Assembly (NCBI GenBank): GCA_002507175.1
Contig: DAZE01000020.1
Span: 5,872 to 69,871, forward strand
Direction: 5' to 3'
Source of the DNA: Euryarchaeota archaeon UBA558
Lineage (GTDB): Archaea > Thermoplasmatota > Poseidoniia > Poseidoniales > Thalassarchaeaceae
DNA length: 64,000 nucleotides
Below the pieces are notes generated by a model. It did no database searches and had not been told where the DNA came from. It saw only the letters and a list, made by a program, of their open reading frames with translations. Numbering within the stretch: position 1 is the stretch's first letter; each line of letters starts with the position of its first letter. The position numbers and the translations under genes are program-made. This document shows positions 740 to 44,100 of the stretch, piece by piece.

Positions 740-1176
740 CAGTGTTAGTTATCCCACAAAGGATCTATGATATGGATTTTACATAATTCAACGATACATC
801 TACTACTATAACTGCCAGTTCAAAAGCCTCATGAAAAGAGCCGCAGTCACAAGTACCGACCGCTAAACTGCGCATATGAGTGGCCAATCGAAGTCCGCTC
901 CAATCCTCACTGCTGGAATAAGCAGCAGACCCTCTCCAATTACGGACGATGTCCTGGAAATCAATGGAGATTGTGTTTACTCTGACAGAATACCCAAACC
1001 AATACATGATGCCGATCACAGTGTAATTGGAACAGATCCTTCAATATATCAAGAAGAGAACACGAAAGTACTGATCTGAGATAGGAGAGCCGTGCCCGTA
1101 TCAAAGGACATCTTGAAATCTCAGGGGATCGCTTGTAATCTAATCATTAAATAATTGAATCGGAGGCTTAGATTTT

Positions 1177-3075
1177 TCACAAAAATACGTTGTTTTCATG
1201 AATTTCTAGAAATACCTCGAGATTGTACAGCATCCAGATTAGCATTGCTTCCTGGCTACTCATCGATTTTAACGATAGCAGTTCCTCTAATCCAGACCTC
1301 ATCACAATTCCATGTTTTACCATACTTCCTGAGAGTATTTTTTTCTTGGCTAAGTCAGAAAATTCTCCATCCATCCAATCTGTTAGGGGGACGGGGAAGC
1401 CCACTTTCTTCCTATTTATCACCGGAGAAGGAAGTAGGCCCACAGATGCCTGTTTTAATACCCATTTTGGAGTATCGTCAACCTCACTTGAGTCGGCCCC
1501 AATTTTTTCTACTGGCCCATCATGCCACCGCAGTTTCAATTCCTTGTCTATCCTAAATGATAGCTCGACGAGCTTGTGATCCACGAATGGAACCCTGGCC
1601 TCAACGCTAGCCCCCATTGTTGTTGTGTCCACTCTTTGCAATAAGCCCGGAAGATGTATCTTCTCAAAAACGTACATGTACTGAGTTGCTGGATCTAAAT
1701 CTTCAACCTCCGAGAAACTATTATGAAAACTAGATATAGATTCTCCCTTGTTAAAATCCTCTAGAACATTCGGAGAAAATAGTTTTTCTAGCCAATGAGT
1801 AGGAGTGTACCGATAGAGGTGCAAGAATCGTTCAACCTCACTTTTGAATTCACCACCATACCTCTCTGAAAGTCTTAGTCCCAAAGTAGAGTCAGTTTCA
1901 AAATTTCCTTCTTTCCAATTTTCGAGGAACCTGGAATCTTCAGCGGAACGGAAAATCCTCCCATACCCACCAAAAATCTCGTCCGCGCCTTCTCCGGATA
2001 GAACTACTGTAATGTCTTGTTTTAGGATCTTTGACATCAAGTAGAGTGGCACTTCATTTGGAACGCCCAATGGCGCATCTTTCAGATATACCAATTCTTG
2101 AAGCTTCTCGAGGTAATCATCCATTCCAATCATTATTTCGGTATGTTTTGTATTGTACTTCTCGGAGACCATTCTAGAATATTCGAATTCATTGAATCCA
2201 GAATTAGGAAATCCTATGGTGTATGTAGAAATTGGAGAGTCTTGCATTCTCGACATAATCGCAGTTATGAGACTAGAGTCAACTCCTCCGGAGAGGTATG
2301 CTCCTACTTTGACATCAGCCACCATTCGAAGACCTATCGATTTTTTCAGATTTTCTAAGACTAGTGAGACGGCCTTTTCCTGGTCCGAGATCTTTGGCAT
2401 ATCAAGAGATGCCTTCAAAGACCAATATTGTCTGATTTCTTTGATATTATGCCTATCTAACTTCATCCAATGGCCCGGTTTCAATGAGTTAATTCCTTCG
2501 AAGAAACTCGCTCCAGAAACTGGATAGCGGAAACAAAGATAAGAAATCACAGAGTCAATATTCAATTTAAAACTTCTATTTAATGATCTTATCAATGATT
2601 TTGGTTCTGAGGAAAACGTAAATCCCGAATCTGATGAATTAAAGAATAGTGGCTTAATACCGAGTCTATCCCTCGCCAAGAAAGTTTGAAGGGACTGATG
2701 GTCAAAAATAGCGAAGGCAAACATTCCATTGAATCTCTCAAGACATCCTTCTTCCCACTCAATGTAAGATAACAAGATTACTTCTGTGTCTCCTTCTGTC
2801 TGGAAAACGTGTCCTAGATCGGCAAGCTCCTTTCTGATGGCTCTATAATTGTAAAGCTCACCATTGTATACGATACTGAATCTTCCATCTGCGGAATGCA
2901 TAGGCTGATTTGACTGATCACTGATGTCGATGATACTCAATCTTCGGTGGCCTATACTAAATGGAGGAGAGAAGTAGGTAGCAGAGGCATCCGGACCCCT
3001 ATGATTCATGAGTTCCAATGCTTCTTCGAAGTCTATTCGGTTAATTTCACCGATATGGCCTAGAATTCCGCACAA
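1177..3075 (-). CDS. asnB: Asparagine synthase (glutamine-hydrolysing), AsnB family
   Basis: N-terminal CGILGH Ntn-amidotransferase motif, SGGVDSS PP-loop and C-terminal synthetase region. The track ORF starts at ATG 3114. The catalytic Cys must be residue 2, which fits the TTG at 3075 sitting 1 nt after the tagD stop. Confidence 0.9.
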   Translation of the reverse strand: MCGILGHIGEINRIDFEEALELMNHRGPDASATYFSPPFSIGHRRLSIIDISDQSNQPMHSADGRFSIVYNGELYNYRAIRKELADLGHVFQTEGDTEVILLSYIEWEEGCLERFNGMFAFAIFDHQSLQTFLARDRLGIKPLFFNSSDSGFTFSSEPKSLIRSLNRSFKLNIDSVISYLCFRYPVSGASFFEGINSLKPGHWMKLDRHNIKEIRQYWSLKASLDMPKISDQEKAVSLVLENLKKSIGLRMVADVKVGAYLSGGVDSSLITAIMSRMQDSPISTYTIGFPNSGFNEFEYSRMVSEKYNTKHTEIMIGMDDYLEKLQELVYLKDAPLGVPNEVPLYLMSKILKQDITVVLSGEGADEIFGGYGRIFRSAEDSRFLENWKEGNFETDSTLGLRLSERYGGEFKSEVERFLHLYRYTPTHWLEKLFSPNVLEDFNKGESISSFHNSFSEVEDLDPATQYMYVFEKIHLPGLLQRVDTTTMGASVEARVPFVDHKLVELSFRIDKELKLRWHDGPVEKIGADSSEVDDTPKWVLKQASVGLLPSPVINRKKVGFPVPLTDWMDGEFSDLAKKKILSGSMVKHGIVMRSGLEELLSLKSMSSQEAMLIWMLYNLEVFLEIHENNVFL

Positions 3076-3076
3076 T

Positions 3077-3505
3077 TTAATTTCCCTCGTTTCGGATTTG
3101 TAGAAGAGTTTCATTTATCAAAGTCGAAGAAGTACCTTTCATGTAGGGAAAGTAAACGATTTCAACATCTACTTCTGCGAACTGCCTTTCATATCCTTTC
3201 CACTTTGGATGCCCTTTCCAGTCGTCGCCGACGAACATGACATGGAATCCCAATCGTCTCCATGCTCCGAGTTTATCCATATCGGCCTGAGGAGTCACTT
3301 CATCGACATACCTTATCGCCTCAACTATCCTAATTCGCTCCTTGAATGGAATGACTGCCTTCTTGTGCTTATACGAAACGAGCTCATCAGTTGTAACTCC
3401 GACTATCAGATGGTCACATTTTTCCTTTGCCTTTCTTAGCAGGTTCAAGTGTCCGACATGAAACAAATCAAAAACACCAGTAGTATAGCCTATCCTTCCT
3501 CCCAT
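3077..3505 (-). CDS. tagD: Glycerol-3-phosphate cytidylyltransferase (TagD-like)
   Basis: GYTTGVFDLFHVGHLNLL (HxGH cytidylyltransferase motif), RYVDEV, GDDW, about 140 aa. GGTG Shine-Dalgarno-like element 7 nt upstream of the ATG. Confidence 0.9.
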   Translation of the reverse strand: MGGRIGYTTGVFDLFHVGHLNLLRKAKEKCDHLIVGVTTDELVSYKHKKAVIPFKERIRIVEAIRYVDEVTPQADMDKLGAWRRLGFHVMFVGDDWKGHPKWKGYERQFAEVDVEIVYFPYMKGTSSTLINETLLQIRNEGN

Positions 3506-3513
3506 ATAAACAC

Positions 3514-3732
3514 CTAATTAGTCGCATTTATCTGCGAGAAGTAAGAATTCACTACACAAACTTCTCTATAGAACCAATTCGAATCTTCGGAGTCGTAAAT
3601 AACTGAACTGTTAGCGAACTCTGAACGATCTACCGAATACTCCCTCTCTCCCCAAACTTCTCCACTAAGGTAATCTCTGAGGGATAAACGGTCGTCCACA
3701 ACGGACCCTTCCTCGAACTCCCCCTCTATCAT
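3514..3732 (-). CDS. Small acidic hypothetical protein (uncertain)
   Basis: 72-aa ORF ending 8 nt upstream of the tagD start, consistent with tagD being an internal operon gene that has its own SD. No motif recognised. Confidence 0.3.
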   Translation of the reverse strand: MIEGEFEEGSVVDDRLSLRDYLSGEVWGEREYSVDRSEFANSSVIYDSEDSNWFYREVCVVNSYFSQINATN

Positions 3733-3880
3733 TAGGTATAAGTCCGTAATAGGGGCGGTTTAAATTGAACCGTTGTCACGGCACAAATAGAATAGTTTGG
3801 ATTAGATCTGGATTAAGTGGATGGAGATCGACAATCATGACGATCCAGAGGCCGATCGTAATTTATGGTGAGGGGGAAAT

Positions 3881-5119
3881 TTGTCAAGTCTAAAGTCACT
3901 TGGAGCACCTCTGATGAAAGGCCATCTGCTTCTGAAGAAGATCCTACCATTCTACAGCCCATGGGGAGTATATTGGGCGCTCTATTTTGGCCCATGGACA
4001 TGGTTATTCAGAGCTTTGAGTTGGCTGGTTCCTAAACAAGATAATCTGTTTATTTTTGGCTCGAACGAAGGCAAGCATTACTCCGACAACTCAAGGTCAT
4101 TGTTCGAATATATTCAAAATAATGATAACTCGATCAGGGCCGTATGGTTCACTAACAACAGGGATGTTTACAGAGAGGTTGAGGAGAAATACCCTGGCAA
4201 GGTCGTCATGTCTCCCAGCCTAAAAGCCTCTTTTCTCTATCTCAGGGCAGGACAGGCTATCATCTCGTTCGGATATCAAGATATGTGTAAGATGCCATGG
4301 ATTCCATCCATAACAGTAAATCAATTATGGCATGGAGTGCCACTGAAGAAAATTGGTCTACTGAGGGCCAAAAATAAAACAGATGAAGACTACGGAGAAA
4401 CAGCAAGGCTTTTTCTGCAATGGTGTGGAAATGTTGACAGATTCTTTGTGACCTCAAGATATGAAAAAGAGTGTCTTAGCGAGGCATTCAACATCCCGCA
4501 AGATCGGTTTGAGATCACGGGTAACCCTAGAAACGACCTTCTGTACTTGAACAAAAACCCTCTGGACTCAGACACTAAAACAATCCTATACACGCCTACA
4601 TTCAGGGAAAGGGGCGAAGGCGAACATTCGAGAGTTCTGTTGCATCCCGATGTATCTGAAGGACAAATGCACGAATTCTTGGAGAAGAATCAAGCTAAGT
4701 TAATAATTAGACCACATTGGATTACTGAGGGCCGAGTATACAAATCAGATAGGATTGAAACTGTGACTCATTTTGATGAGCCACATCTACACAATTTGTT
4801 CATTAAATCTGACGTGTTAGTAACCGACTATTCTAGTGCATACATAGATTGGTTGATCTTAGATAGGCCAGTAGTATTCACCCCCTACGATCTAGAAGAA
4901 TACTCTGAGAAAAATGGTCTTTTGGATGATTATGAAAACCTCGTACCACCACCAATATCTACAACTTTGGAAGACCTATTTATCGATCTAGGGAGCGCAT
5001 TAGAGAATCCCCAAAAATATAGTGAAGAGAGAAACCAAATGAAAATTAAATACCTCGGGCCGTGGGGTTACGGGGCCTCTGAAAGAGTATTGTCAATATT
5101 GAAATCAAAGAATTTCTGA
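3881..5119 (+). CDS. CDP-glycerol glycerophosphotransferase (TagB/TagF family)
   Basis: Family motifs NQLWHGVPLKK, ILYTPTFRE and VTDYSSAYIDWLILDRPVVFTPYD. TTG start preceded by GGTGA 9 nt upstream. Alternative ATG at 3914. Confidence 0.85.
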   Translation: MSSLKSLGAPLMKGHLLLKKILPFYSPWGVYWALYFGPWTWLFRALSWLVPKQDNLFIFGSNEGKHYSDNSRSLFEYIQNNDNSIRAVWFTNNRDVYREVEEKYPGKVVMSPSLKASFLYLRAGQAIISFGYQDMCKMPWIPSITVNQLWHGVPLKKIGLLRAKNKTDEDYGETARLFLQWCGNVDRFFVTSRYEKECLSEAFNIPQDRFEITGNPRNDLLYLNKNPLDSDTKTILYTPTFRERGEGEHSRVLLHPDVSEGQMHEFLEKNQAKLIIRPHWITEGRVYKSDRIETVTHFDEPHLHNLFIKSDVLVTDYSSAYIDWLILDRPVVFTPYDLEEYSEKNGLLDDYENLVPPPISTTLEDLFIDLGSALENPQKYSEERNQMKIKYLGPWGYGASERVLSILKSKNF

Positions 5120-5127
5120 ATGCGGGG

Positions 5128-6171
5128 ATGATAGCTGTGATTGGTTGGATAACTACTTGGGGCATTAAGTGTGGTATTGCAACTTATTCCCGCTTTCTCA
5201 TAGAAGAAATGGACGACGACGTATTGATCCTTTGTCAATCTGAAGAAGGAAATCCAGAAGGGGCAATACCGTGTTGGAAAAGGGACTCAAACCTTTTCAG
5301 CGAGATGATCGATCAATTTGCCCCAAATGAAATAGACACTGTTGTTATTCAACACCAACCAGGGCTTCTAAGATTTTCATATCTCAACCAGTTGTTACTG
5401 AAATTAGCTGAAATGAACATCAAGGTATTCATAACAATGCACAATACACGGGATAAATCAATCTTATTTCGCAGTCGAAGAATCGAGAGAGCTGTTGAGG
5501 GCCTCAAGACCTGTTCAACTGTTATGGTACACTCAAAGGCCGACGTCGAGAATTTAGAAAAATTGGGGATTAAGACTAACGTTGTAATGATTCCTCATGG
5601 AATTTATCCCCCGCCTTCAGAATCAGTAGAAGCATTGCCCCTCAATGGCAGAGTTTTGGGAACCTTTGGATTTTTATTACCGCACAAAGGTCAGATAGAG
5701 TTGGTTGAAGCTTTTGAGCAGCTTTCTGGTTGGGATGAATTATTGTTGTTGTGCGCAACTCGTAAGGACAGTGAGAAAACTGAGAAGAGAATCAACTCAT
5801 TAATTAAAGAAAAAGGACTTGAAGAGCGTGTAAGATTTGTGACAGAATTCCTAGATGATGAAATTGCTATTGCAACCCTCTCAAAGTGTGACCTATTGGC
5901 GTTTCCCTATCAGAGAACGAACGAGTCTGCCTCAGGGGCAGTAAGGATGGGCGTCGCTTCCGGCACACCAATAGCCGTGTCACCGATTCATATTTTCGAT
6001 GATATCAAGGGGGCAATCAAAATGAGGGGAAAATCCGTCGATGACATTGTTGCGAGCATTTCCACACTCTCCGAGAAAGACCTTGAGTCCTCTAGGAAAT
6101 CAATAATTGAATTTCGAGATTCCCTGCAGTGGTCCGAAGTCGCCAAGCGAATTCAAGGGCGACTAAACTAG
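5128..6171 (+). CDS. Glycosyltransferase, GT-B fold (GT4-like)
   Basis: C-terminal half has the GT4-type signature FPYQRTNESASGAVRMGVASGTPIAVS (E-x7-E-like region). 347 aa. Directly follows the TagF-like gene. Confidence 0.75.
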   Translation: MIAVIGWITTWGIKCGIATYSRFLIEEMDDDVLILCQSEEGNPEGAIPCWKRDSNLFSEMIDQFAPNEIDTVVIQHQPGLLRFSYLNQLLLKLAEMNIKVFITMHNTRDKSILFRSRRIERAVEGLKTCSTVMVHSKADVENLEKLGIKTNVVMIPHGIYPPPSESVEALPLNGRVLGTFGFLLPHKGQIELVEAFEQLSGWDELLLLCATRKDSEKTEKRINSLIKEKGLEERVRFVTEFLDDEIAIATLSKCDLLAFPYQRTNESASGAVRMGVASGTPIAVSPIHIFDDIKGAIKMRGKSVDDIVASISTLSEKDLESSRKSIIEFRDSLQWSEVAKRIQGRLN

Positions 6172-6348
6172 TGCAATATTTGGTTGGCTGTATACTCTGT
6201 ATCAAGCCTCGATACCCTTTCTCTCTACGCTATTACAGAGGTTTCTAAGGCAGTGCGTCGATGAATAACTTGTGCAATAAGTATTTATTTTTCCATTATC
6301 CAAGCCCTAATTCTTATCACGATCGAACAAGTTTATGAACGCAAAAAA

Positions 6349-7272
6349 CTATTGTGTGAGATTGTTGAGTCCTGTCAATTCCTCTAGAAGATATTGGTCT
6401 TCCACAAGACTTTGCCTCACCAACTCTCTCTCACTATCCGTGATGATTCTACTTCCCGATGTCCTAGTCGAAAAAAATTTAGTTCTGTATATGTTAATGC
6501 CTCGACTCTGTAATTTTTTCGCAATCATTTCCCTGAGTCCTCGGGGGAGGATTCCCGCGGAATTTTTTACAAATCTACCAACGATATTTATGGTTCTTCT
6601 CTGACTTGTAAGATTGTGATCCTTCACTAGACCTAAATCAAAACTGTATTCCCTTACCCCAATATGGTTGCAAACTTCCTTCAAAACCTCATGTGGGAGA
6701 TTACGCATAACTTTCGTTTCGATAATCAAGAAAGAATCGATAGGGAAAAAAGCCAACCAATTCTTCAACGACTCGCCGTATAAAGAATCACATCTTAATC
6801 TTCCATCTTTCCAAGCTTCAGTGAATTCACTCCAATCCACACCAGCTTTCCTGTCATCACCGTAATCAAGAGCATGGTTCCATTGGGAGACTGCTCTCTC
6901 TACGGGGTCTCTTAAGGAGACAATAAATTTAGCCTCCGGCCAAATTTTTTTAATTCTTGAGGGTGCTTTTGGACAAGAGAAAGCATGGACAGAACAATCT
7001 ACTTTCACACCCTCACCTCGAAAGAATTCACCGTATCCGGATAGATCCAAACTTGAGTCGTCTCGGATAAAAGTCCCCTTGTGTGTCGCTACAATATTCG
7101 GCTCCTTCGGATTCGATATGCATATCTCAGGGTGTTGCGATAGAACATCAGCAAGCCAACTCGTCCCACACTTGGGTGCTCCCAGTAAGAATGATCCAAC
7201 CAGTGGAACGTCCATCATATCGAAACCTTTTGATTTGAATTTTTGCAGGGAATTGAGTTTTATTCTGTTCAA
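6349..7272 (-). CDS. Sulfotransferase family protein
   Basis: 5-prime PAPS-binding loop GAPKCGTSWL and 3-prime phosphate-binding motif SLRDPVERAVSQW. The start overlaps the upstream gene stop (ATGA). Confidence 0.8.
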   Translation of the reverse strand: MNRIKLNSLQKFKSKGFDMMDVPLVGSFLLGAPKCGTSWLADVLSQHPEICISNPKEPNIVATHKGTFIRDDSSLDLSGYGEFFRGEGVKVDCSVHAFSCPKAPSRIKKIWPEAKFIVSLRDPVERAVSQWNHALDYGDDRKAGVDWSEFTEAWKDGRLRCDSLYGESLKNWLAFFPIDSFLIIETKVMRNLPHEVLKEVCNHIGVREYSFDLGLVKDHNLTSQRRTINIVGRFVKNSAGILPRGLREMIAKKLQSRGINIYRTKFFSTRTSGSRIITDSERELVRQSLVEDQYLLEELTGLNNLTQ

Positions 7273-7784
7273 TCGTCATTATTTTCATGTACGTGAAGCA
7301 TGACAGGGTTCTCGTCACCCATAACTTCTGTGAAACCTTCCATCGTTCTTTTCCAGAGCTCCTGATGACCACTCCATTCCAACCATCTGTCCACAAAGTC
7401 AGTGTGATTCTTGATATCTTCATCATCCGAGAGCCTTTTGAGGATTTCATTAGTTTGAGCGAGTACCGCACCTACGGGCCCATTGAGCATGTAGGTTGTG
7501 TAGGGATTCCTCTCTTGGATTACCGACTGATGCGCTCTCCAAAGAGAAAAAATCACATCGTAGAGATATCCTATCATTAGCACACAAAATATCACAAATA
7601 ATCCAATAGAGGCTAAACCCCAATAGGTCATTGATATACCTAGGATATCTGTGTTGGGATCGAACCTCCATTTGACATAGGGCCAAGTCAACAGGGTGAG
7701 GGTCGTTACCCAGAATGCCATTGAGATTAGAGTTTGACTTTGTTGAACCCTCCAGTATTCACGCATTACCGTCTTCTTCAGCAT
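7269..7784 (-). CDS. Hypothetical membrane protein (2 predicted TM helices)
   Basis: Hydrophobic segments LISMAFWVTTLTLLTW and WGLASIGLFVIFCVLMIGYLY. 4-nt overlap with the sulfotransferase start suggests co-translation. Confidence 0.55.
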   Translation of the reverse strand: MLKKTVMREYWRVQQSQTLISMAFWVTTLTLLTWPYVKWRFDPNTDILGISMTYWGLASIGLFVIFCVLMIGYLYDVIFSLWRAHQSVIQERNPYTTYMLNGPVGAVLAQTNEILKRLSDDEDIKNHTDFVDRWLEWSGHQELWKRTMEGFTEVMGDENPVMLHVHENNDD

Positions 7785-7826
7785 AACATCATCTCGGAGG
7801 GTGTGTGTATCACTATTGTGACTTAA

Positions 7827-8063
7827 TCAGTCAGATTGCTCCCTGAATGCAGAGATAACACGAGGTTCCGTCGACTCAGAGGGGTCTATCTCTGTTAGAG
7901 AAGAGATAATCACGAATCTTCGAGGCACTCTGTGCTTGCTCCCGAAATTCGAATATACGTACTCTATCGCACCCTCTTTGTCATCAGCGACCACGTCAAT
8001 CGTGTACGGTTGATCTCGGGAGCCACTGCGGAAAGTACCCATTGCTCTGAATGCTTTTACCAT
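7827..8063 (-). CDS. rplX: Ribosomal protein L18Ae/LX
   Basis: 78 aa. MVKAFRAMGTFRSG...AIEYVYSNFGSKHRVPRRFVII resembles archaeal LX (FRV.G.F....EKVYSELGSKHKV pattern). Neighbourhood with pfdA and ftsY is typical for archaea. Confidence 0.75.
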   Translation of the reverse strand: MVKAFRAMGTFRSGSRDQPYTIDVVADDKEGAIEYVYSNFGSKHRVPRRFVIISSLTEIDPSESTEPRVISAFREQSD

Positions 8064-8180
8064 GGTCCTGCGGAAAGCGACCCCAATTTAATCCGAACGG
8101 ATGCAATTGACCAGTCATCCAAGCGAATTTCCAGGCAAATCTCCCCATCTTTTAGAAAAGTCGACCTACTACAGACCTCC

Positions 8181-8696
8181 ATGAGCATGGAAGAAGCAAG
8201 GCAGCTGACCCGCCTCATTGAAGCAAACCACAAACGGCTTCAGAGCATGAAAAGCCAAGTCGAAAGACTCAACTCACTACTTGAGGAACAGACTAGAGCC
8301 CAAAACACTCTGGAGTCAATTGGGAACAGTGACGGTGGCATGACCATGGTTCCACTTGGCAGTGGCGTCCAGATCCCCGTCCAGTTAGCGCAAGATCTTC
8401 ACCCAGTCATAGACATCGGATCAGGTGTCCAAATAGAAACGGACGTTGAAAAGACTCTCAAGATGCTAAACCAAAGAAACAGGGAACTGGAAGGACTCAT
8501 TCAGAACTTGTTGTTAGAAATAAAGCAAATCGATGAAAGCATCATGGACATGGAGGAGCAAGTGATGGAACTGAACCGAGAAACGAAGACTACCAAAGAG
8601 TCACCCGCCAGATCAAGTTCAGAACCAACGACCACACAGCCCAAGGCCAAGCAAAGAAGGCGGAAAAGGGGAACAGAACTAACATTGGATGACTGA
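8181..8696 (+). CDS. pfdA: Prefoldin alpha subunit
   Basis: Two coiled-coil arms flank a beta-hairpin core (MTMVPLGSGVQIPVQL...VIDIGSGVQIE). I chose the ATG at 8181. The longer track ORF from 7932 overlaps LX antisense. Basic C-terminal tail KAKQRRRKRG. Confidence 0.8.
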   Translation: MSMEEARQLTRLIEANHKRLQSMKSQVERLNSLLEEQTRAQNTLESIGNSDGGMTMVPLGSGVQIPVQLAQDLHPVIDIGSGVQIETDVEKTLKMLNQRNRELEGLIQNLLLEIKQIDESIMDMEEQVMELNRETKTTKESPARSSSEPTTTQPKAKQRRRKRGTELTLDD

Positions 8697-8707
8697 GGTA
8701 ATGTTGC

Positions 8708-9961
8708 ATGGGTTTCCTCAGTCGGTTCCGTCGCTCTGCGAAAACATTGGATGACATTGGATCCATAGCTTCGGAAGAAGACCTTACTATCGTTCCAGAA
8801 AATGTAAATGAGGCCTATGAAGTGAAAACTTCTCCTATCTCAGAACATGAGGTGGAAAGCGAATGGGAATCAACGGAAATGATTGATTCAATTCACTTGG
8901 ATAGGGATAAAAAATCTCAAAAACTAATGGAGAGAAAACAACAATCCCAGAAGATAACGAAAAAAGCCAGCATTGAGAAAAGACGTTTGAAACTTGTTCC
9001 AAGACCATCACAAGGGCTATCAATAGACATCGACCATTTGGTTGACAAGAAGTCTAGAAGAAAAATATCCGCCACACCAACCTTCGCGAAATTGATGTCA
9101 GAACTAGAAATAACACTATTGGAAGCCGATATGGGGCATGCGGCCGTAGACGAAGTTCTGACGGCGATGAGAGCGAGGTTGATCGGCGCCCCGCTACCCA
9201 AGAAAGGGGACCTTGAAAGGATAATCGACTCTGCACTTATCGGAGCTCTTGACTCGTTGTTGAGGGTCTCGTATTGGGATTTCGACCAGACCGTTCAAAG
9301 CCTGATGAAAGACGAGATTCCTATCATAATTATGTTGGTTGGAGTGAATGGAACTGGTAAGACGACCACAGCAGCCAAGATATCACACAGACTAGTCCAA
9401 GAAGGCTTGAGCGTCGTATTAGCAGCTGCAGATACATTCAGGGCGGGCGCAATAGATCAGTTGAATGATCATGCAGAGCGTATTGGTGCCCGGTGCATAC
9501 GGAGTCAACGAGGTGGCGATTCGGCTGCCGTTGCAAGAGATGCGATCGACAGCGCGGTAGCCAAGGGGGACGACGTCGTGATAATAGATACTGCTGGGAG
9601 GATGCAGAACAAGACCAACTTGATGCAGGAACTGAAGAAGGTACACAGAGTCGCCTCGCCTCATATTGTCCTGTTTGTTGGGGATGCACTTGCAGGTAAT
9701 GATGCCGTAGAACAGGCAAAAACCTTCCAATCGTTTTTGAATTTCGACGGTGCAGTCCTTTCAAAGTTGGACACAGATGCTAGGGGTGGTGCTGCACTTT
9801 CTATAGCCCATGCCACAAACAAGCCTATCGTACTGGCTGGGGTCGGACAGGGCTACGACGATCTCATCGACTTTGAGCCATCCAACTTTCTAACACAGCT
9901 TCTTTCGGATGACATGGACCCAATGTCGTTCACAATTGTCGCGAGGGATCAAAATGAATGA
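8708..9961 (+). CDS. ftsY: Signal recognition particle receptor FtsY
   Basis: SRP-GTPase motifs VGVNGTGKTTTAAK, DTAGR and SKLD, plus the NG-domain layout. About 120-aa charged N-terminal A-region. GAGGT upstream of the ATG. Confidence 0.95.
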   Translation: MGFLSRFRRSAKTLDDIGSIASEEDLTIVPENVNEAYEVKTSPISEHEVESEWESTEMIDSIHLDRDKKSQKLMERKQQSQKITKKASIEKRRLKLVPRPSQGLSIDIDHLVDKKSRRKISATPTFAKLMSELEITLLEADMGHAAVDEVLTAMRARLIGAPLPKKGDLERIIDSALIGALDSLLRVSYWDFDQTVQSLMKDEIPIIIMLVGVNGTGKTTTAAKISHRLVQEGLSVVLAAADTFRAGAIDQLNDHAERIGARCIRSQRGGDSAAVARDAIDSAVAKGDDVVIIDTAGRMQNKTNLMQELKKVHRVASPHIVLFVGDALAGNDAVEQAKTFQSFLNFDGAVLSKLDTDARGGAALSIAHATNKPIVLAGVGQGYDDLIDFEPSNFLTQLLSDDMDPMSFTIVARDQNE

Positions 9962-10556
9962 AAGTCCCTCATCGTTGATATCAATGAGGGATTCAATCAC
10001 AGCCGGTAGGATCAATATGATAATGAGACAGAGGGGCTGGCGATCAAAAACAATCCAAGGCAATGATGGGTTAGTTGAGTCATATTTGAAAATTAGACCT
10101 AGAGTGACATTCTTGGGATTTGATACAGGATCGACTTCAGGTGAGTTAGCAGCCTTGAAGATAAGGGATATTGACGATCAAGCACGGATTGTTTTTGTTT
10201 GTTCTAGGTCCAAGTTGGAAGCAGCCAGACAGGCATCTCATTCTGCAGGAGCCGTGGGGGTGATCTCAACGCCTATACTAGCCTCAGATATCGAGGAAGC
10301 ATGGCCCAAAATAATGGGCGTCGTGCCATACGCCCCAGGTCTAGCGACGCTCGAATCAGATATCCCCTCACCCCCAGCCAACTTGCCCCCGCCTCCTGCG
10401 CCAGCAACACCACAAAAACATCCATCTGTCACCAGCCAAGCCAACCTTCCAGTCGATGGCCAGGTCAAGCAGGGAAACCGTGGAAGGGTATGGATAATTA
10501 CCTCGTTAGTCGCCTTGGCCATTTCAGGGTCGATTGCCTATTATCTGACCATCTGA
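9954..10556 (+). CDS. Tail-anchored membrane protein with receiver-like (pseudo-REC) domain
   Basis: The ATG at 9954 overlaps the ftsY stop (ATGAATGA). The middle region aligns by eye to CheY-like receivers (FLGFDTGSTSG, RIVFVCS, GAVGVISTP). Pro-rich linker PPANLPPPPAPATP. C-terminal TM VWIITSLVALAISGSIAYYL. Confidence 0.5.
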   Translation: MNESPSSLISMRDSITAGRINMIMRQRGWRSKTIQGNDGLVESYLKIRPRVTFLGFDTGSTSGELAALKIRDIDDQARIVFVCSRSKLEAARQASHSAGAVGVISTPILASDIEEAWPKIMGVVPYAPGLATLESDIPSPPANLPPPPAPATPQKHPSVTSQANLPVDGQVKQGNRGRVWIITSLVALAISGSIAYYLTI

Positions 10557-11653: not shown

Positions 11654-13605
<1,952 letters not shown>

Positions 13606-24602: not shown

Positions 24603-26084
24603 ATGAGCGAGCAAATGGAGGCTTTGACCCCCGAGTTGTCCAGAAGCGCCATGCGACTGAACAAGGAAAAGCTCCAGGCAGTCCCTTGGAACCACCAGGG
24701 GAATCATCCTGGCTCCTTGATTATATGGAAATTGTTCAGAACCATGGTGACCTTCGGCCACAAGGCCATATTTCGAAGATCAAAGTCAGACAATGCACCA
24801 GAAATCGACGGAGGAAGGATATCCGTTTCCACTCACATAAACGGGTTGGTTGATCCGCTGGTAATCGTAAATAGTCAAGAAAGGCGCTTCACCGCACTTG
24901 GAAGACATGATCTGGTCACACGCCCTCTTCTTGGATGGTGGTGCAGAGGGCTGGGTATCCAACCGATCCTGAGAAGGGTTGAGATGTCTGAAGGCGTGAC
25001 GGACTCTGAGTTTGCCAGATTCATCAACCAAAGGAGTATGCTCACAGTATCAAATTGCATATCTACAGGACATTCCGCCGTGGTTTTCCCGGAAGGAACA
25101 TCCCACCAAGATTCTTTGCTTCATGGCTTCAAAACAGGCCCTTTCAGGACTGTTTTCGCAGCTTCAGCCATAGCAGAACTTCGTAATTTGCCTCTACCAC
25201 ACCTCCAACCAACGGGATTGCATTGGCGAAATCATACCCAGTTTAGAACCGACCACTATGTTGAGTACCTGGACCCGATACCCATACCAAATCCCTACAA
25301 CGAGAAAGAGGCTAAGGAACTGATCTTGGGGAAATGGGTTGAACCACCAGAGAAAGCAGTCATATCCATGAGAGACAGGGTTTACCAGATCCTAAAGGAA
25401 ATAACCCCTGATGCACCGGATTGGGATACGTACCGGTCATGGACACTGATCGCCAACAGAAGTCGAAAGGAGGAAGAATTGGATCTTCATCAAGAGCTGA
25501 TTGAAACTAGGAAAGTGCGAGAGATTTGGAGGCAAGGAAAACTTAACGAGGACCTTATGGACAATGCGAGAATATCCTCAAAATTGCTTTTCGAGAATGG
25601 CTTGGACGGGAGGGACCTCGACCAAAACGGTCAGTTGAAGCGGGAAGACGGGGCGTTCCTGAACTTAGTTCTTGGAACATTCATCATACTCCTTTCATCA
25701 CCTCTATTTGTCTTGGGCACTTTCCCACAGGCATTCATGGCATGGTGGCTTGGTGATCGTACCGATGAAGGAATAGATGCAAGAACTACCTATCATCTTC
25801 TGGCAGCAATGTTTTCTATTCCCATATTCTGGCCCTTTTTCTCTATTATCTGGACCTTGCTCGCCATCAATGTGGTGGGAATTGAGGCAATTTATGCTCC
25901 AATTATCTTCATAATTCTACTGCCTTCATTCTACATAGCCACCCTTACGACAGCATACGGATATGATTTGACTCAAGATTTTCTACGCAATCGAAGGAGG
26001 GTTAAACTGTCAAGAAAAGATGATTCGGTGAAGCTGCAAAATTCAATAATCCGAGTCGACAAACACTTAGTTGACCTCATATAG
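24603..26084 (+). CDS. Phospholipid/glycerol acyltransferase family protein (PlsC/GPAT-like) with a C-terminal membrane domain
   Basis: STHINGLVDPLVI (H-x5-D variant of the acyltransferase HxxxxD block) and VVFPEGTSH (FPEGT block). Three or four C-terminal TM helices. Confidence 0.65.
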   Translation: MSEQMEALTPELSRSAMRLNKEKLQAVPWNHQGNHPGSLIIWKLFRTMVTFGHKAIFRRSKSDNAPEIDGGRISVSTHINGLVDPLVIVNSQERRFTALGRHDLVTRPLLGWWCRGLGIQPILRRVEMSEGVTDSEFARFINQRSMLTVSNCISTGHSAVVFPEGTSHQDSLLHGFKTGPFRTVFAASAIAELRNLPLPHLQPTGLHWRNHTQFRTDHYVEYLDPIPIPNPYNEKEAKELILGKWVEPPEKAVISMRDRVYQILKEITPDAPDWDTYRSWTLIANRSRKEEELDLHQELIETRKVREIWRQGKLNEDLMDNARISSKLLFENGLDGRDLDQNGQLKREDGAFLNLVLGTFIILLSSPLFVLGTFPQAFMAWWLGDRTDEGIDARTTYHLLAAMFSIPIFWPFFSIIWTLLAINVVGIEAIYAPIIFIILLPSFYIATLTTAYGYDLTQDFLRNRRRVKLSRKDDSVKLQNSIIRVDKHLVDLI

Positions 26085-26783: not shown

Positions 26784-29700
26784 ATGAACATCCAATTCCC
26801 AGAGGGTATTGCAGTGGACTCCAAGAAGAAAAAAAACAGCTTTTTGATGACTTTCCTCATGCTATCCAGCCTGATCGCTGTGATGGCGGTTCCAGCTCCC
26901 GTTCAAGCGAGTGAAATTGTACTAACCGATGCCATAAACGTCGTGAATAGTGGCCCTAACTCAGACAACATGGTCGCAGTGAATGCTGACTCCGAGGGGA
27001 ATGTTCACTTTGTATGGAGTAGAAATACACAACACTTGTATTACAAGATGCTAGGCCCTGCGGGCGAGACACTGATCTCAGAGACCCAGATTTCAAATCC
27101 TGGGGCACATCAAGCATGGCATCCCGACATTGCGATTGACTCAGAGGATCGGGTGCACATTGTATGGGCAGACAGGTCAGGTCAGTGGACCATTTGGTAC
27201 CAGATGCTGGACCCAGAAATGCATGAACAGGACGGAACTACTGCAGTTGACGGGCTAAATGGAATATCAATAATCGACGATTACGAAATAAAAACCGCAT
27301 CTCAGGACCGGGACTGGCCAGCAATTGCGATCGACTCCCTTGATAATGCCCACATCGTATGGCAAGACAATCATGACCCGTTGGACTTGTACTACTCCCA
27401 GACTCAGATTTACTACGAAATGATTGAGATTGACGTGTCGAGTAGGGAGGCGCAGACCAAGATAGACGCCACTCTACTCACACCGATAATCGGAATGAAA
27501 GGACATCCGGATATTACCATTGATAGCGAGGATTTCGTCCAAGTTGTATGGGACGACACCAGAGGCGGCAAGGTCGAGATGGTTGTACCCATCGATACCT
27601 CAGGGTCTATGGGCACTGAGTGGGCAGACATGTGCACCGTGTTTTATGGGGGGCAGTTCTCTTCAGGTGGCAATTTTATCGGATTGAAGCCGATGTTGGA
27701 ACAAGCCAACATGACAGTCTTCGAGACACTTTATGGAATAGGAGGTGTCCAGCAAGTTGCAGCCGCCACATCTGGCTATTGCACAACAGCCTATCAGACG
27801 GGAGGATCTGGTAGTCAGGGGCCAAGGGCGAATCATCTAGGTCAGACACCAACAGATACATCAGGAGGTATCAGGAAACTCACTGGCGCTGTGTTAGGCG
27901 GTTCAGCCATATCTCTGAGCTACGATGGTGGTGGCCAAGGTTCAGAGGCATGGGGACCATCTTCAACTTGGTCGTGCCTCTCATGGAGAGATGCCCAGGG
28001 CAGGCTGGGTAACCTGGCGAACCCTCCTACAACGGAAGATCATAGATGGAACCCCAACGCTACGAAAATCATCATACCCATCTCTGATGAGAATGCTAAC
28101 GATGGAAGCCCTGAGGATGCCACAGACCGTGAATCAGTGGATGAGGCCCATGACGCATGTGTGTTAGCTGGCATATCCCCCGTGCCCCTCTGGGCAGGGT
28201 CTGACAATTCCGTAGGATCTCAAATGAGGGACTTAGCGGAATGTCCGAACAATCAACCCGGGACACCATCAGTCACACGATATTGTCCTGGTGGAACACC
28301 AAGAACCTCTCATGCACAAGGGGCTGTATATGCATTCCCAACGGGCCAATCTGCAGCAACGGAACTTCAATTCATGGTTGAAGCCCTAATCTACCTTGCC
28401 ACCAACGCCTCTAGAGAAATTTTCCTGACAGTGCTCGATCCATATGCTCTCCTGGATAATCCATGGGTTGGGTTCACCCCCGGCCAACCAGCCACGCAAT
28501 GTTTCCCACAATGTTCAGCTACCAGCGGCTCAAGGTACTACATCGAGGACGTCGGTCCATCACTGGATCTCGAAGGTTACGGGCATCTGGTCGTCGTCAA
28601 TGACACACGTGTCACCCTTCAGGATGCGTATAGCCTGCACCCAAGCATAGCCTTGGATAGCCAAGGCAATACCCACATAGCCTGGATGGATGGACGTCCC
28701 TACGGCTTCGACCTGGAGGTTAACTACGAGGTCTTCTACACTAGATTGAAACTCAAAGGGGCTGGTATATGGGACGGCGCCAGCGACGGTTTGCCGTCCT
28801 TCGGGATAAAACAGATAATGGATTCTGCAATATCTAACGTCGAGGGATTGGATTGGTTTGACGATAACCCCGATCGTGGTCTTTATGATGCGACTTCCTA
28901 CCTACCAGAGATATTAGTCGATGATTTTGACAACGTACACATCGCTTGGTTGGACAACAGTAACTTAAGCCAAGGCGAGTCAATAATGTATACCCGATTG
29001 AATAGTACTACCGATGAGTATCCAAATGGGTTCCCGACGCTCAATAATCTAGCCCTCGCTGTTCTGGATCAATGGGAAATATTTGAGGTCTCGTCATGGA
29101 AATCTGGTAAACTAGGCCCCAACTCGGGTCGAAACCCACAACTCGGCACACCTCCCGCTTTTGCCAACGACCTAGGAAGTGGAGCTCATGTCGCATGGTC
29201 CGACTCGACAAAATGCGGGGAGAGCAACAGTGCTAAGGAAACCCTCTGCTATGTACACGTTCTTACAGGTTTGGTGGATGTAGCGCTTGCTCCATCCGAG
29301 ACTTACTATCACGTAATCGAACCAGGGGAGAGCACGATTTACAACCTGACGATAGACAACCCTACCCCAGGCCCCTCCGATCTAGTGGCTGACACATTCC
29401 GCCTGACCGTCGAAAACGTACCGATGAATTGGAGCGCTACCCTGTATTACGCGTCGAATCACACTCCAATTTTTGACTCGACCCCCATCTACCTAAAAGG
29501 CAATTCAGACGGTCAAAACCTTGTGCCATTGTACCTGAGGGTCAGAGCCCCAACGATATACCAAGCTGAAGGAGACCAACTTGCTGAGATCAATGTGCGA
29601 GCGGTTTCTTACAAGGATCCGGCAATTGATGATGATCGACAACTTGTCGTGTTGATGGATGTAGTCCATGGAATAGATCTCTCCACCATCAACAAAAACA

Positions 29701-41177: not shown

Positions 41178-44100
41178 TCAGGAGCACCCTGTTGTTGAAC
41201 CACAGGCATTGCACTTCAGACAAGTTCCATTTCGCACCATCTGACTGCTCCCACACTCATCGCAGATGTCTCCAGTAAAACCTCTCTCCCTGGCCAATCT
41301 CCTCGTTTTCGTGACCTCATCTTCATCAGTTTCTAGAGTCGAGGAGGTCAGGGTCATTTGCACTTCTCTCTTCTCCCCCTGATGCCTGAGCAGACCATCA
41401 TCTGTAGGGACTGGCCTGCTGATCGAGGTGGTTTCCAGATCCTCTTCAGATACGTGAGCCAAGTCATTCCTGTCTAGATATTGAATCGCGAGTTCTCTGA
41501 AAATGTAGTCTACGATGCTTGTGGACATCTTCACTCTTCCACTACCACCCTGAACCATTCCACTCGGTTCGAATTTTTGGAATGTGAAGGACTTCACGAA
41601 GGCATCTAGCGGCACTCCGTACTGCAAACCAATTGATACGGCAATGGCAAATTGATTCAACATGGACCTCCAGGCTGCGCCCTCCTTCGAGGTCGTTATC
41701 ATAATCTCCCCTAGTCTGCCATCTTCATACTCGCTGGATGTGAGGTAGACTGTGTGTCCTCCAACACGTGATTTTGTGGTTTTTGATGAGCGTACGTCTG
41801 GAAGGGCCTTCCTCGCTGCTATGAAGCTCTGAACAACATTCTCCGCGATAGGCCGAGCTAGATCATCTGGGACAGGTATCGCCTTGACAGCATCCTCGAC
41901 CATGGTCTGTACTGCTCCAGACGAGTCTTCCTCCTCGAGTATGGAGGTATCAACTATCTGACTCATCAAGGGTTGGGACAGTTTACTTCCATCTCGATAG
42001 ACTGCACAGGCTTTGTTCATTGTGCTGTGACTTAGCTCATATGCCTCACGTATATCATCGATTGAAGCTGAGGCGGGCATGTTGATTGTTTTGGAAATCG
42101 CGCCTGAGATGAATGGCTGGGCAGCCGCCATCATTAGAACGTGGGCTTGCCAATCAATGGACCTCGTACCGTGCTTGCCGCATGGTGTGGCGCAATCGAA
42201 TACAGCTAAGTGTTCTTCTTTTAGTCCGGGGGCCCCCTCGATACTCCCATATCCGAAGATTACGTCATTTGCCCGCTCGATGTCTTCGGGAGAAAGGCCG
42301 ATGTGAGCCAGGGTATCGAAGAATACGTTCTGACAATCTTCATCCGACATAGTCAAGACAGTCTTGCAGAAATCATCTCCCAACACCGATGGAGAAAAGG
42401 CCGATCTAATGTCAAAAACATCTGGCATCGAGGACTCTATGTTTGATAGAACCTCGTCTGTGAACCCCTTTTCTTTCAAAATTCGGGGATCGAGGCCGGG
42501 GCTGCCTGAAAGTCGTCCAGTCCCCATGATGTGGTCTACGATCGAAGTGACCTCTGAATCCGTGTAGCCTAATCGCTTCAGTGCACTCGGGACCCCTCTG
42601 TTGATTATTCTGAGCGTCCCACCTCCTGCTAGTTGCTTGTACTGCACCAGTGAGAATTGTGGCTCGACCCCAGTTGTATCAGCAGCCATAACCAGGCCTA
42701 TGGTTCCAGTTGGAGCGATGACGGTGGTCTGAGCATTTCTGTAACCGTATTCCTCCCCCCCTTGCACCGCTCGATCCCAAGCAGATTTTGCGGCATCCAA
42801 GAGATCGCTGGGACATCGTTTTGCGTCTATTCCCATGGGGGTTATGGTTAGACCCTCGTATTCGCTTCCTTTCGCATCATAAGCCGCTCTCCTGTGGTTC
42901 CTCATCACTTTGAGCATGTGATCAGCATTCTCGTGATATTTCGGGAACGGCCCTAACGAACCTGCGAGTTCTGCCGATGTGGCATAGGACTCACCACACA
43001 TGATCGATGATAATGCTCCACACACTGCGTAAGCTCGGTCATCCGCATATGGCAACCCCATGTGCATTAGAAGAGACCCCAAGTTGCAGTACCCGAGACC
43101 TAATGTCCTGTATTCGTATGATTTCCTGGCAATCTCTTCAGAAGGAAACTGAGCCATCAGGACACTGATCTCTAGCGTCATCGTCCATAGCCTCACGCTG
43201 TGTTGGAATGATGGAATGTCGAACTTTTGAGCATCGGTGTCGAAGTAGTGCAACAGGTTGATGCTCGCGAGATTACATGCTGTATCATCTAAAAACATGT
43301 ATTCTGAACATGGGTTTGACCCATTGATTCGTCCACCCTCTGGGCACGTATGCCACTCGTTTATGGTAGTATCAAATTGTACGCCTGGGTCAGCACATGC
43401 CCAAGCAGTGTAGGCAACCTTGTCCCAGAGTTCTTTGGCAGGCATGGACCTACAGGGCGTGGGTTCCCTGCCACTCTCATTGGCGTTCTTCAGCTCAGTT
43501 CTATGATAAAGGTTCCAAGTCCCATCGTTTTCCAGAGCATCCATGAATGAGTTTGGTACACGGACCGAGTTGTTGGAGTTCTGCCCAGAGACGGTGCCAT
43601 AACCTTCACCCTGCCAGTCTGTATCCATCTTATCGAAATGGATCGATTTCCATCCCTGTTCTGCAAGGTCCAAGAATCTCTTGACGTGAGAATTGGGAAC
43701 ATGGTTCTTTATCGCCTTAGCGGCAGCCTTCTTCAATTCTAGATTGTCATTCATGTCAAGCTTGTTACCTTTGCCGTCGAAGCTCCATATTGCATCCATG
43801 ATTGCGTCGGCATGACCCTGTAGCAGATTAGATCCAATAACCAAGGCAGAAACCTTCTCTTCCTCGGATAACTTCCAATCTATGTATTCCTCGATATCGG
43901 GATGGTCCAGATCTAATGTGACCATCTTTGCAGCTCTTCTCGTGGTGCCACCGGATTTTATAGCACCAGCAGCCCTATCTCCAATTTTTAGGAATGAAAT
44001 TAATCCACTTGAGGTGCCACCTCCTGAGAGTGGCTCCCCTGAACCCCTTATGTTTGAGAAGTTTGAACCTGTTCCTGATCCGTATTTGAACAATAGTGCT

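Follow-up and report, generated by a model that had tools for sequence, protein, structure and literature searches.

What does a gene set resembling that of bacterial teichoic acid synthesis do in the genome of a planktonic marine archaeon? The window analyzed here, 64,000 nucleotides of contig DAZE01000020.1 (positions 5,872 to 69,871, forward strand) from Euryarchaeota archaeon UBA558, raises this question near its left end. There, adjacent genes (1177-7784) encode an AsnB-type amidotransferase, a TagD-like cytidylyltransferase, a TagF-like phosphotransferase, a glycosyltransferase (GT) of family GT4, a sulfotransferase and a protein with two transmembrane segments (2-TM protein). A first-pass annotation had read them as a cluster for a teichoic-acid-like polymer of glycerol phosphate. 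The gene content of the window fits Marine Group II (MGII, Poseidoniales), to which the host most likely belongs. To our knowledge, these archaea, abundant in the surface ocean, have never been cultured and the chemistry of their cell envelope is unknown. Given its deviant composition and a gene content that differs at one conserved slot, the cluster is a variable (flexible) genomic island. Its function, as we consider probable though far from certain, is to tailor a glycan of the cell surface on the cytoplasmic side by adding a phospho-alcohol, a hexose, sulfate and an amide.

First, we focus on the extent and setting of the island. The open reading frames (ORFs) named for the cluster and all motif strings quoted for them were verified at their coordinates. 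The G+C content (GC) of the island (1177-7272) is 41.7% compared to 48.35% across 7785-64000, and 502 equal-sized windows outside the island have a minimum of 45.8% and a standard deviation of 0.96 points. Per line of 60 nucleotides (nt), G+C averages 25.1 inside the island and 29.0 outside (Mann-Whitney p = 2e-20), and the most deviant tetranucleotide usage of the window is that of the island. The profile is not flat. The seven spot counts that had first indicated a low-GC island are exact, but they were picked at the extremes and overstate the contrast. To the right of the island, profile searches confirm the reported archaeal neighbors L18Ae/LX, prefoldin and SRP54-type FtsY, and the same searches bear out the family assignments of the enzymes (AsnB, CTP_transf_like, Glyphos_transf, Sulfotransfer_1 and, weakly, Glycos_transf_1).

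The same slot was compared in ten related marine archaeal loci, hereafter siblings, which comprise eight species-representative metagenome-assembled genomes (MAGs) and the metagenome contigs L093 and L094. The shared gene order runs from a phosphoribosyltransferase through a xanthine permease, beta-CASP, ferredoxin, geranylgeranylglyceryl phosphate (GGGP) synthase and small ORFs to the island, and continues with the 2-TM gene, L18Ae, prefoldin, FtsY, orotidine-5'-monophosphate decarboxylase, GroES/EL and PurL. The island slot therefore lies between the GGGP-synthase and small-ORF side and the 2-TM, L18Ae, prefoldin and FtsY genes. TagF-like and 2-TM genes occupy the slot in all ten siblings, AsnB, TagD-like and GT4 genes in none, and a sulfotransferase of the window type in two (L010, 55% identity; L011, 83%). 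Beside the TagF-like gene, the siblings encode an NTP_transferase / NTP_transf_3 protein of 240-277 residues, directly upstream on the same strand in most and divergent in two. Among solved structures, it is most closely related to PntC, LicC and inositol-phosphate cytidylyltransferases (COG1213 / NTP_transferase class); cytidylyltransferases of the PntC/LicC class act on small phospho-alcohols. Directly after the 2-TM gene follows a GT2 of 263 residues, and Sulfotransfer_2, polysaccharide pyruvyl transferase or Gly_transf_sug genes are present in varying combination. Each of the siblings has retained a single cytidylyltransferase, a single TagF-like gene and a single glycosyltransferase. The sibling slot genes all decorate glycans, and the sulfo- and pyruvyltransferases among them add negative charge.

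In eight of the nine sibling loci measured, the GC of the slot lies 5-9 points under that of the flanks. Because the sibling slots are low in GC as well, this property is long-standing and not a sign of recent arrival. A recent acquisition of the whole cluster is rejected, as the TagF-like gene and the low GC are common to the sibling slots. The proposal of a flexible island holds, with lateral acquisition for part of it: the slot content varies, and Bacteroidales proteins share 76-79% identity with the TagD-like protein. The TagF-like gene itself is old in the slot.

The constant gene and conserved anchor of the island (3881-5119, plus strand) encodes a TagF-family CDP-alcohol phosphotransferase of 412 residues. 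It matches Glyphos_transf (PF04464) over profile positions 3-363 of 367 (E = 4.1e-65, 220.6 bits, cutoff 22.1). Residues H151 (WHG) and H279 (RPH) align with the catalytic His444 and His584 of Staphylococcus epidermidis TagF and are invariant in a 23-member archaeal family, so that a loss of the catalytic histidines, which would have spoken against the TagF assignment, did not occur. The AlphaFold2 model (pLDDT 83.7) has S. epidermidis TagF (3L7I) as its top Foldseek match (TM-score 0.74, E = 2e-24), followed by TarL, Cps3D and Bcs3. Scores against the NCBIfam equivalogs are below the cutoffs (TarF 124 of 550 bits, TarL 59 of 1000, TarB 48 of 500). Judged by profile, catalytic residues and modeled fold, the protein is a true TagF-family enzyme, for which transfer from CDP-glycerol is predicted. 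In a scan of species-representative genomes, its relatives are found in eight archaeal MAGs (57-71% identity) and the next best in marine Flavobacteriaceae (~30%); the copies on L093 and L094 are 76-77% identical. The TagF-like tree broadly tracks the clades of core genes with at least one allele replacement (L011), and the protein diverges much faster than the core, e.g., 73% versus 97% identity for FtsY inside one clade. As the gene stands in the same place in all ten siblings, it is ancestral to the slot and not newly acquired.

How did the window then come to lack the cytidylyltransferase of its siblings? The left part of the island is an inserted module of 2.6 kb (1130-3825) that consists of a truncated DUF2206 gene, the TagD-like gene and AsnB. 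According to blastn, window positions 1130-3696 match positions 12377-9809 of the contig L087 (89.5% over 2569 nt) and positions 3690-3825 match L087 7595-7460 (84.7%), which comprises the promoter and 5' end of the DUF2206 gene. A remnant ORF of 72 codons (3514-3732, minus strand) is the 3' end of this internally deleted membrane-protein gene: positions 3696-3517 correspond to residues 753-812 of the 812-residue L087 protein (75%, tblastn). The insert is flanked by pieces of a dead LicC/PntC-type cytidylyltransferase gene (NTP_transferase, COG1213-like), detected by tblastn with the intact protein of sibling L009. To the left (831-1127, plus strand) are its 5' and middle fragments, with L009 residues 1-41 at 831-953 (76%) and residues 119-181 at 939-1127 (71%). 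Both hold in-frame stops, residues 42-118 are deleted, and blastn against L009 agrees. To the right (3764-3868, plus strand) is the 3' fragment with residues 225-257 and two in-frame stops, and positions 3815-4958 match L009 7418-8567 (blastn). The three fragments share 57-76% identity with the L009 protein. Because these stop-bearing fragments flank the insert, the ancestral cytidylyltransferase was destroyed in place by the newcomer; the dead gene was the ancestral partner of the TagF-like gene.

The contig L087 carries a separate glycan island of a marine archaeon, in which DUF2206 is followed by TagD, AsnB and a 38%-identical TagF-like gene. Together with L095 and L096, it belongs to a second, larger type of archaeal glycan island beside AdoHcyase and DUF1616 genes, in which all three hold TagD-like, AsnB and TagF-like genes, the latter at 36-41% identity. 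DUF2206, NTP_transferase and rhamnose-pathway genes are found in L087 and L096, and in L095 a Wzx-type gene stands beside the triad. An island of the L087 type is the apparent source of the module and, further back, bacteria. The insert junctions show no notable direct or inverted flanking repeats and no tRNA is nearby; on these grounds, a mobile-element insertion is rejected. On the right side of the island, the end of the TagF-like gene, GT4 and the sulfotransferase gene lack a counterpart in the closest sibling, and GT4 and the sulfotransferase replaced the ancestral GT2.

The newcomer TagD-like gene (3077-3505, minus strand) encodes an HxGH cytidylyltransferase of 142 residues (CTP_transf_like, 9.2e-20). 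Its best full-length match in the PDB is Bacillus subtilis TagD (1.5e-20, ~40% identity). The motifs FHVGH and KHKK align with HWGH and KQKK of TagD, and we take the KHKK lysines to correspond to TagD Lys44/Lys46. RYVDEV and GDDW, which are common to TagD, ECT and CCT, are kept. The score against the glycerol-3-phosphate (G3P) cytidylyltransferase equivalog TIGR01518 is 95.4 bits and thus under the cutoff of 165.4, and other members of the subfamily discussed below reach 86-108. 'TagD-type', the initial call, is hence right for the fold and the nearest relative only. However, TIGR01518 is no discriminator of substrate, because both TagD paralogues of Flavobacterium sp. 245 (L097) fail it and the AsnB-linked one scores the higher. 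GenBank labels two of the island proteins automatically as glycerol-3-phosphate cytidylyltransferase and asparagine synthase.

The TagD-like protein belongs to a distinct subfamily. Its alignment signatures are GYTTGVFDLFHxGH and an insertion of seven residues after GDDW. Moreover, PY(T/M)KGTSST replaces PRTEGISTT of TagD with a change of Arg to Tyr, and the region around Glu71/Trp74 after RYVDEV differs from TagD. The window protein has Met in PYMKGTSST, fixed on 32 contigs, where all other members have the Thr equivalent to Thr114 in RTEGISTT of TagD. Archaeal copies share 94% (L087), 79% (L096) and 71% (L095) identity with it, thousands of Bacteroidales proteins 70-79% (the nearest 76-79%), and proteins of Flavobacterium, Clostridium and the bacterial MAG L098 61-68%. 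An identity of 76-79% to Bacteroidales compared to ~40% for B. subtilis TagD is strong evidence for cross-domain transfer of the gene. In every locus of the subfamily that was examined, an enzyme with an Asn-synthase domain adjoins the TagD-like gene. In the Bacteroidales loci L089-L092 (~3200-10350), a conserved operon consists of YfhO, GT4, an Asn-synthase-domain-only protein of 346 residues, the TagD-like protein (76-79%), LicD and GT4; in L089/L090 the operon adjoins that of the F-type ATPase. The 70 non-sibling TagF-like loci are bacterial save for a few methanogens, and a TagD gene is close by in 22 of them. AsnB together with a high-identity TagD is seen only in Clostridium, and the TagD genes of the other 21 share 30-41% identity and lack AsnB. 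A separate arrangement is found in the marine Flavobacteriaceae loci L017, L019, L020 and L025. Here, a fusion protein of 454-457 residues combines a canonical TagD with an additional N-terminal domain of ~320 residues. Its gene immediately precedes the TagF-like gene and lies ~1.4 kb upstream of the match. From its N-terminal sequence, the added domain looks like a GpsA-type glycerol-3-phosphate dehydrogenase, in which case the fusion protein would run from dihydroxyacetone phosphate to CDP-glycerol alone.

The AsnB gene (1177-3075, minus strand) encodes a glutamine-dependent amidotransferase of 632 residues with GATase and Asn_synthase domains (7.9e-81 for the latter; TIGR01536 434 bits, cutoff 267). 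Translation starts at TTG 3075, one base past the TagD stop, and not at 3114 as initially listed. This start exposes Met-Cys-Gly-Ile-Leu-Gly and therefore the N-terminal Cys needed for glutamine hydrolysis. The best PDB matches are the hydroxyamidotransferase 7YLZ (1.3e-52) and Escherichia coli AsnB (1e-42). The protein is 91% identical to the L087 copy (dN/dS 0.09). It is more similar to 7YLZ and to the long AsnB paralogues found in polysaccharide loci than to the E. coli enzyme.

The strict pairing of TagD-like and AsnB genes raises the question of whether the two share one substrate. The TagD-like enzyme might activate 2- or 3-phosphoglycerate to CDP-glycerate, from which the TagF-like enzyme would transfer and AsnB amidate the group to yield glyceramide-phosphate. 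Such a donor, a sub-case of glycan tailoring, would explain why the subfamily (61-79% identical across archaea, Bacteroidota and Clostridia) always stands beside an Asn-synthase-domain enzyme, even where this is a different, synthetase-only enzyme and the transferase is LicD, while the 21 less similar TagD genes never adjoin AsnB. It would also agree with the departure from TagD at RTEGISTT and around Glu71/Trp74. CDP-glycerate is a real metabolite made by CpgD (PMC12275187). Phospho-glycerate occurs on the S-layer glycan of Paenibacillus alvei, the cluster of which encodes TagD together with a homologue of AsnB and a domain resembling TagF (PMC2943079), and D-glyceramide 2-phosphate is, by a citation given in PMC6222762, part of the Providencia alcalifaciens O22 O-antigen. 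Nevertheless, the closest characterized full-length relatives of the TagD-like protein are the G3P cytidylyltransferases TagD and TarD, and the KHKK lysines are kept. CpgD is of a different fold family (PMC12275187), and the AsnB link could be mere inheritance as one cassette with AsnB amidating a uronic acid. We therefore regard a CDP-glycerate donor for this island as unlikely. The broader notion, rather doubtful as well, is that TagD-like and AsnB form a dedicated two-enzyme unit in MGII-like archaea, Bacteroidota and Clostridia that makes CDP-glycerate and its amide, from which TagF-like or LicD transferases would decorate surface glycans with glycerate phosphate or glyceramide phosphate in place of glycerol phosphate. 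If true, it would be a new cytidylyltransferase specificity inside the TagD fold and the first specific chemical feature predicted for the surface of a planktonic marine euryarchaeon.

Downstream of the TagF-like gene by 8 nt lies the gene for a GT4-like (GT-B) glycosyltransferase of 347 residues (5128-6171, plus strand). It matches Glycos_transf_1 weakly (30.7 bits, cutoff 26.4), with MshA as PDB match (2e-4), and has 566 representative homologues at E<1e-30. The homologues (33-39% identity) are mostly single modules of proteins of 800-1800 residues with two to three GT4 modules; no fusion to a TagF-like domain was found among these relatives. On the opposite strand follows a carbohydrate sulfotransferase (6349-7218) dependent on 3'-phosphoadenosine 5'-phosphosulfate (PAPS). 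It matches Sulfotransfer_1 (3.5e-14, 53.3 bits, cutoff 22), and its best PDB match is the bacterial 3RNL, followed by heparan-sulfate 3-O- and N-sulfotransferases. The PAPS motifs PKCGTSWL (5'-phosphosulfate binding, 5'-PSB) and RDPVERAVSQW (3'-phosphate binding, 3'-PB) align with AKCGTSSL and RNPVDRAFSAY of 3RNL. The start is probably ATG 7218, which gives 289 residues as in the siblings; TTG 7272 is the alternative.

The right edge of the island is formed by the 2-TM gene (7269-7784, minus strand; 171 residues), the first gene of the leftward operon. The 2-TM protein had been taken for a partner co-translated with the sulfotransferase. It is instead a conserved island-edge protein, 74-84% identical in all ten siblings, whose gene is followed by GT2 in the siblings and by the sulfotransferase gene in the window. 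As the sulfotransferase probably starts at ATG 7218, the overlap of the two genes is uncertain. The protein has no family match. In L011, the sulfotransferase and 2-TM genes are found together in inverted orientation at 81% identity (blastn). The similarities of the 2-TM protein track the island and not the core genes, with the L011 copy grouping with the clade of the window.

Are these genes still at work? One might suppose that AsnB simply makes asparagine, that the small nucleotidyltransferase is an archaeal RibL-type FAD synthetase and that the rest is inactive. Two pseudogene remnants in the region and the AsnB score above the asparagine synthase cutoff of TIGR01536 would fit this idea, and archaeal RibL proteins are often mis-annotated as TagD. 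However, all five enzyme ORFs are intact, and dN/dS is 0.06-0.10 for the three genes tested (TagD-like, AsnB and TagF-like), the same as for FtsY. The identical TagF-like protein is found on at least 24 ocean contigs, and the gene order is the same in eight places among the matches listed, which argues that this version of the island is fixed in an abundant population. Proteins identical to those of the window are also present in an NCBI MAG labeled 'Euryarchaeota archaeon' (MBK38017-MBK38038) and on many TARA and other ocean contigs. Furthermore, AsnB and TagD-like travel as an accessory module that is absent from the slot in all siblings. A RibL identity of the nucleotidyltransferase is rejected because it aligns with TagD/TarD over its full length and carries RYVDEV and GDDW. 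Intact ORFs, purifying selection and constant gene order mean that the island genes are functional, and a housekeeping role or decay is highly improbable.

We return to the tailoring of a surface glycan, which we favor. None of the five island enzymes has a transmembrane segment, and hence they should act at the cytoplasmic face of the membrane on a lipid-linked glycan. The TagD-like enzyme would use CTP to activate a small phospho-alcohol, most likely glycerol phosphate. The TagF-family enzyme would transfer the phospho-alcohol of the CDP donor to a hydroxyl group of a sugar and so create a phosphodiester, as a single unit or as a chain. The adjacent GT4 might add a hexose, the sulfotransferase sulfate from PAPS, and AsnB could turn a carboxylate into an amide. 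After flipping to the other side of the membrane, the resulting anionic glycan would be presented either on proteins of the surface or in the form of a repeat-unit polysaccharide. Support comes from the enzyme families, catalytic histidines and modeled fold, from the glycan-decorating genes of the sibling slots, from the TagD-AsnB-TagF-like triad of bacterial Wzx/Wzy loci and from the published P. alvei cluster.

Several points weigh against this proposal. In the 64-kb window, no genes were found for a flippase, an oligosaccharyltransferase (AglB), an initiating phosphoglycosyltransferase or PAPS synthesis, and the tie to a particular glycan pathway is thus tentative. The substrate of the TagD-like enzyme may not be glycerol phosphate, given the missed equivalog cutoff and the lost Arg of RTEGISTT. 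TagF-family enzymes of ~400 residues can be polymerases, so that a chain is possible, and the adjacent TagF-like and GT4 genes also fit a two-enzyme synthase for poly(glycosyl-glycerol phosphate).

Could the product then be the sulfated and amidated polymer proposed at the outset, either poly(glycerol phosphate) or a poly(glycosyl-glycerol phosphate) made by the TagF-like enzyme and GT4 in alternation? The TagF fold with both catalytic histidines and a polymerase, TagF, as nearest solved structure point in this direction, as does the distance of only 8 nt to GT4. The arrangement mirrors Cps3D, Cps7D and Campylobacter jejuni HS1.09 with the cytidylyltransferase HS1.11, which make poly(galactosyl-glycerol phosphate) (PMC5974469, PMC11924219), and the trio of cytidylyltransferase, TagF-like enzyme and glycosyltransferase is kept in each sibling. 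However, the GT partner varies between GT2 in the siblings and GT4 in the window, the homologues of GT4 are modules of multi-GT4 proteins and not TagF fusions, and the TarF, TarB and TarL equivalog scores are far under their cutoffs. No TagO/TagA/TagB-type enzyme, TagGH-type exporter or ligase was found among the ORFs of the island and the scanned window, and the homologous cassettes of bacteria belong to repeat-unit loci of the Wzx/Wzy type, in which each repeat would receive a single unit from a TagF-like enzyme. A teichoic polymer goes beyond the gene content, as linkage-unit, exporter and ligase genes were not found in or near the island, and we consider it doubtful. The island does not demonstrate an archaeal teichoic acid; a polymer is possible but unsupported.

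A further point is the use of G3P instead of the archaeal glycerol-1-phosphate (G1P). From the enzyme families, we infer a CDP-glycerol donor with sn-G3P stereochemistry. TagF-like polymerases accept both enantiomers of CDP-glycerol in vitro (PMC5974469), and hence the cytidylyltransferase would decide the stereochemistry. MGII archaea have been reported to lack G1P dehydrogenase and to possess PlsC homologues (PMC6962369), so that G3P chemistry would not be unusual for the group. The window itself encodes a PlsC-type acyltransferase (PF01553) of 493 residues (24603-26084, plus strand), and immediately to the left of the window is the gene for GGGP synthase (PcrB; L001 4905-5699); both fit the reported mixed lipid gene set of MGII.

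Elsewhere in the window, three very large ORFs (26784-31949, 1721 residues; 48431-51739, 1102 residues; 55983-63971, 2662 residues) have matches to CARDB, Big_1 or DUF4129 or none. They probably encode proteins of the cell surface, which may carry the glycans that the island makes. The window also contains topoisomerase VI A and B, TFIIB and RFC-like genes. Bacterial-type GroES/GroEL (11654-13605, plus strand) is 92-100% identical across the siblings and the most conserved part of the neighborhood. A microbial rhodopsin of 289 residues (46819-47688, minus strand; Bac_rhodopsin 4.8e-31) and a class II ribonucleotide reductase of 1233 residues (41178-44879, minus strand) are encoded as well. The latter has its barrel domain in two separate stretches and a TSCPD domain; an insertion, e.g., an intein, could account for the extra length.

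What follows from glycan tailoring is a testable prediction, namely surface glycans with phosphodiester-linked glycerol-type groups and sulfate. The slot would be a site of coat diversification that keeps one phosphotransferase while its partners are swapped, some of them from bacteria. Variable anionic coats are usual targets of viruses and grazers. The lead reaches beyond archaea, given how widespread the AsnB-linked TagD subfamily also is among Bacteroidales and further bacteria. Our literature search found no paper tying MGII to teichoic acids or TagF genes. An archaeal TagF-like protein has been annotated before, as mru_1079 of Methanobrevibacter ruminantium under 'teichoic acid biosynthesis' (PMC5816558), and other archaeal matches are found in Methanoculleus, Methanobrevibacter and Halomarina.

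How does the island compare with known systems? With the wall teichoic acid enzymes TagD/TarD and TagF/TarF/TarL of Bacillus and Staphylococcus, it shares an HxGH cytidylyltransferase and a TagF-family phosphotransferase. However, identities are as low as ~24% to TagF and ~40% to TagD, all equivalog cutoffs are missed, the cytidylyltransferase is of a separate, AsnB-linked subfamily, and TagO/A/B, TagGH and LCP are lacking among the island and scanned window ORFs. An archaeon moreover has no peptidoglycan to which a teichoic polymer could be attached. The capsule systems of the Gram-negative bacteria Actinobacillus pleuropneumoniae (Cps3D/Cps7D) and C. jejuni (HS1.09 and HS1.11) combine a G3P cytidylyltransferase, a TagF-like enzyme and a retaining GT-B (PMC5974469, PMC11924219), and adjacent TagF-like and GT4 genes are found in the island. 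In contrast, the two activities are here on separate proteins without a TPR domain or KpsMT-type export genes, and the GT4, a relative of multi-GT4 proteins, occurs in none of the siblings. Caulobacter CpgD is a CTP:phosphoglycerate cytidylyltransferase, and its CDP-activated glycerate is used for the transfer of phospho-glycerate (PMC12275187). CpgD shares the COG1213 / NTP_transferase class with the ancestral cytidylyltransferase of the siblings, but its fold differs from that of the window TagD-like protein and the acceptor of its pathway is a sphingolipid and not a glycan.

Closer are the cassettes of Flavobacterium sp. 245 (L097), the MAG L098 and Clostridium cavendishii (L064), which contain TagD-like (61-68% identity), AsnB (42-48%), TagF-like (27-30%) and GT4 or GT2 genes. 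The order is TagD-AsnB-Wzx-TagF-GT4-Wzy-GT4 in Flavobacterium sp. 245 and GT2x3-Wzy-Wzx-TagF-AsnB-TagD-LCP in C. cavendishii, the TagD-like protein of which is 68% identical. Flavobacterium sp. 245 and L098 encode the closest bacterial AsnB relatives (45-48%) directly after TagD-like (66% and 61%, respectively), followed by Wzx, TagF-like and glycosyltransferases. These cassettes hold Wzx and Wzy and in Clostridium also an LCP ligase, whereas neither the archaeal island nor its surroundings hold any of them. The slg cluster of P. alvei comprises the same set of three families with tagD, wsfA (AsnB homologue) and wsfC (TagF-like), and the predicted role of WsfC is the addition of a single phospho-glycerate to the adaptor of the glycan (PMC2943079). 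It differs in that the host is Gram-positive, the glycan is O-linked to tyrosine and the TagF-like domain is part of a three-domain protein. Compared by description, the slg cluster is nonetheless the closest described analogue of the archaeal island.

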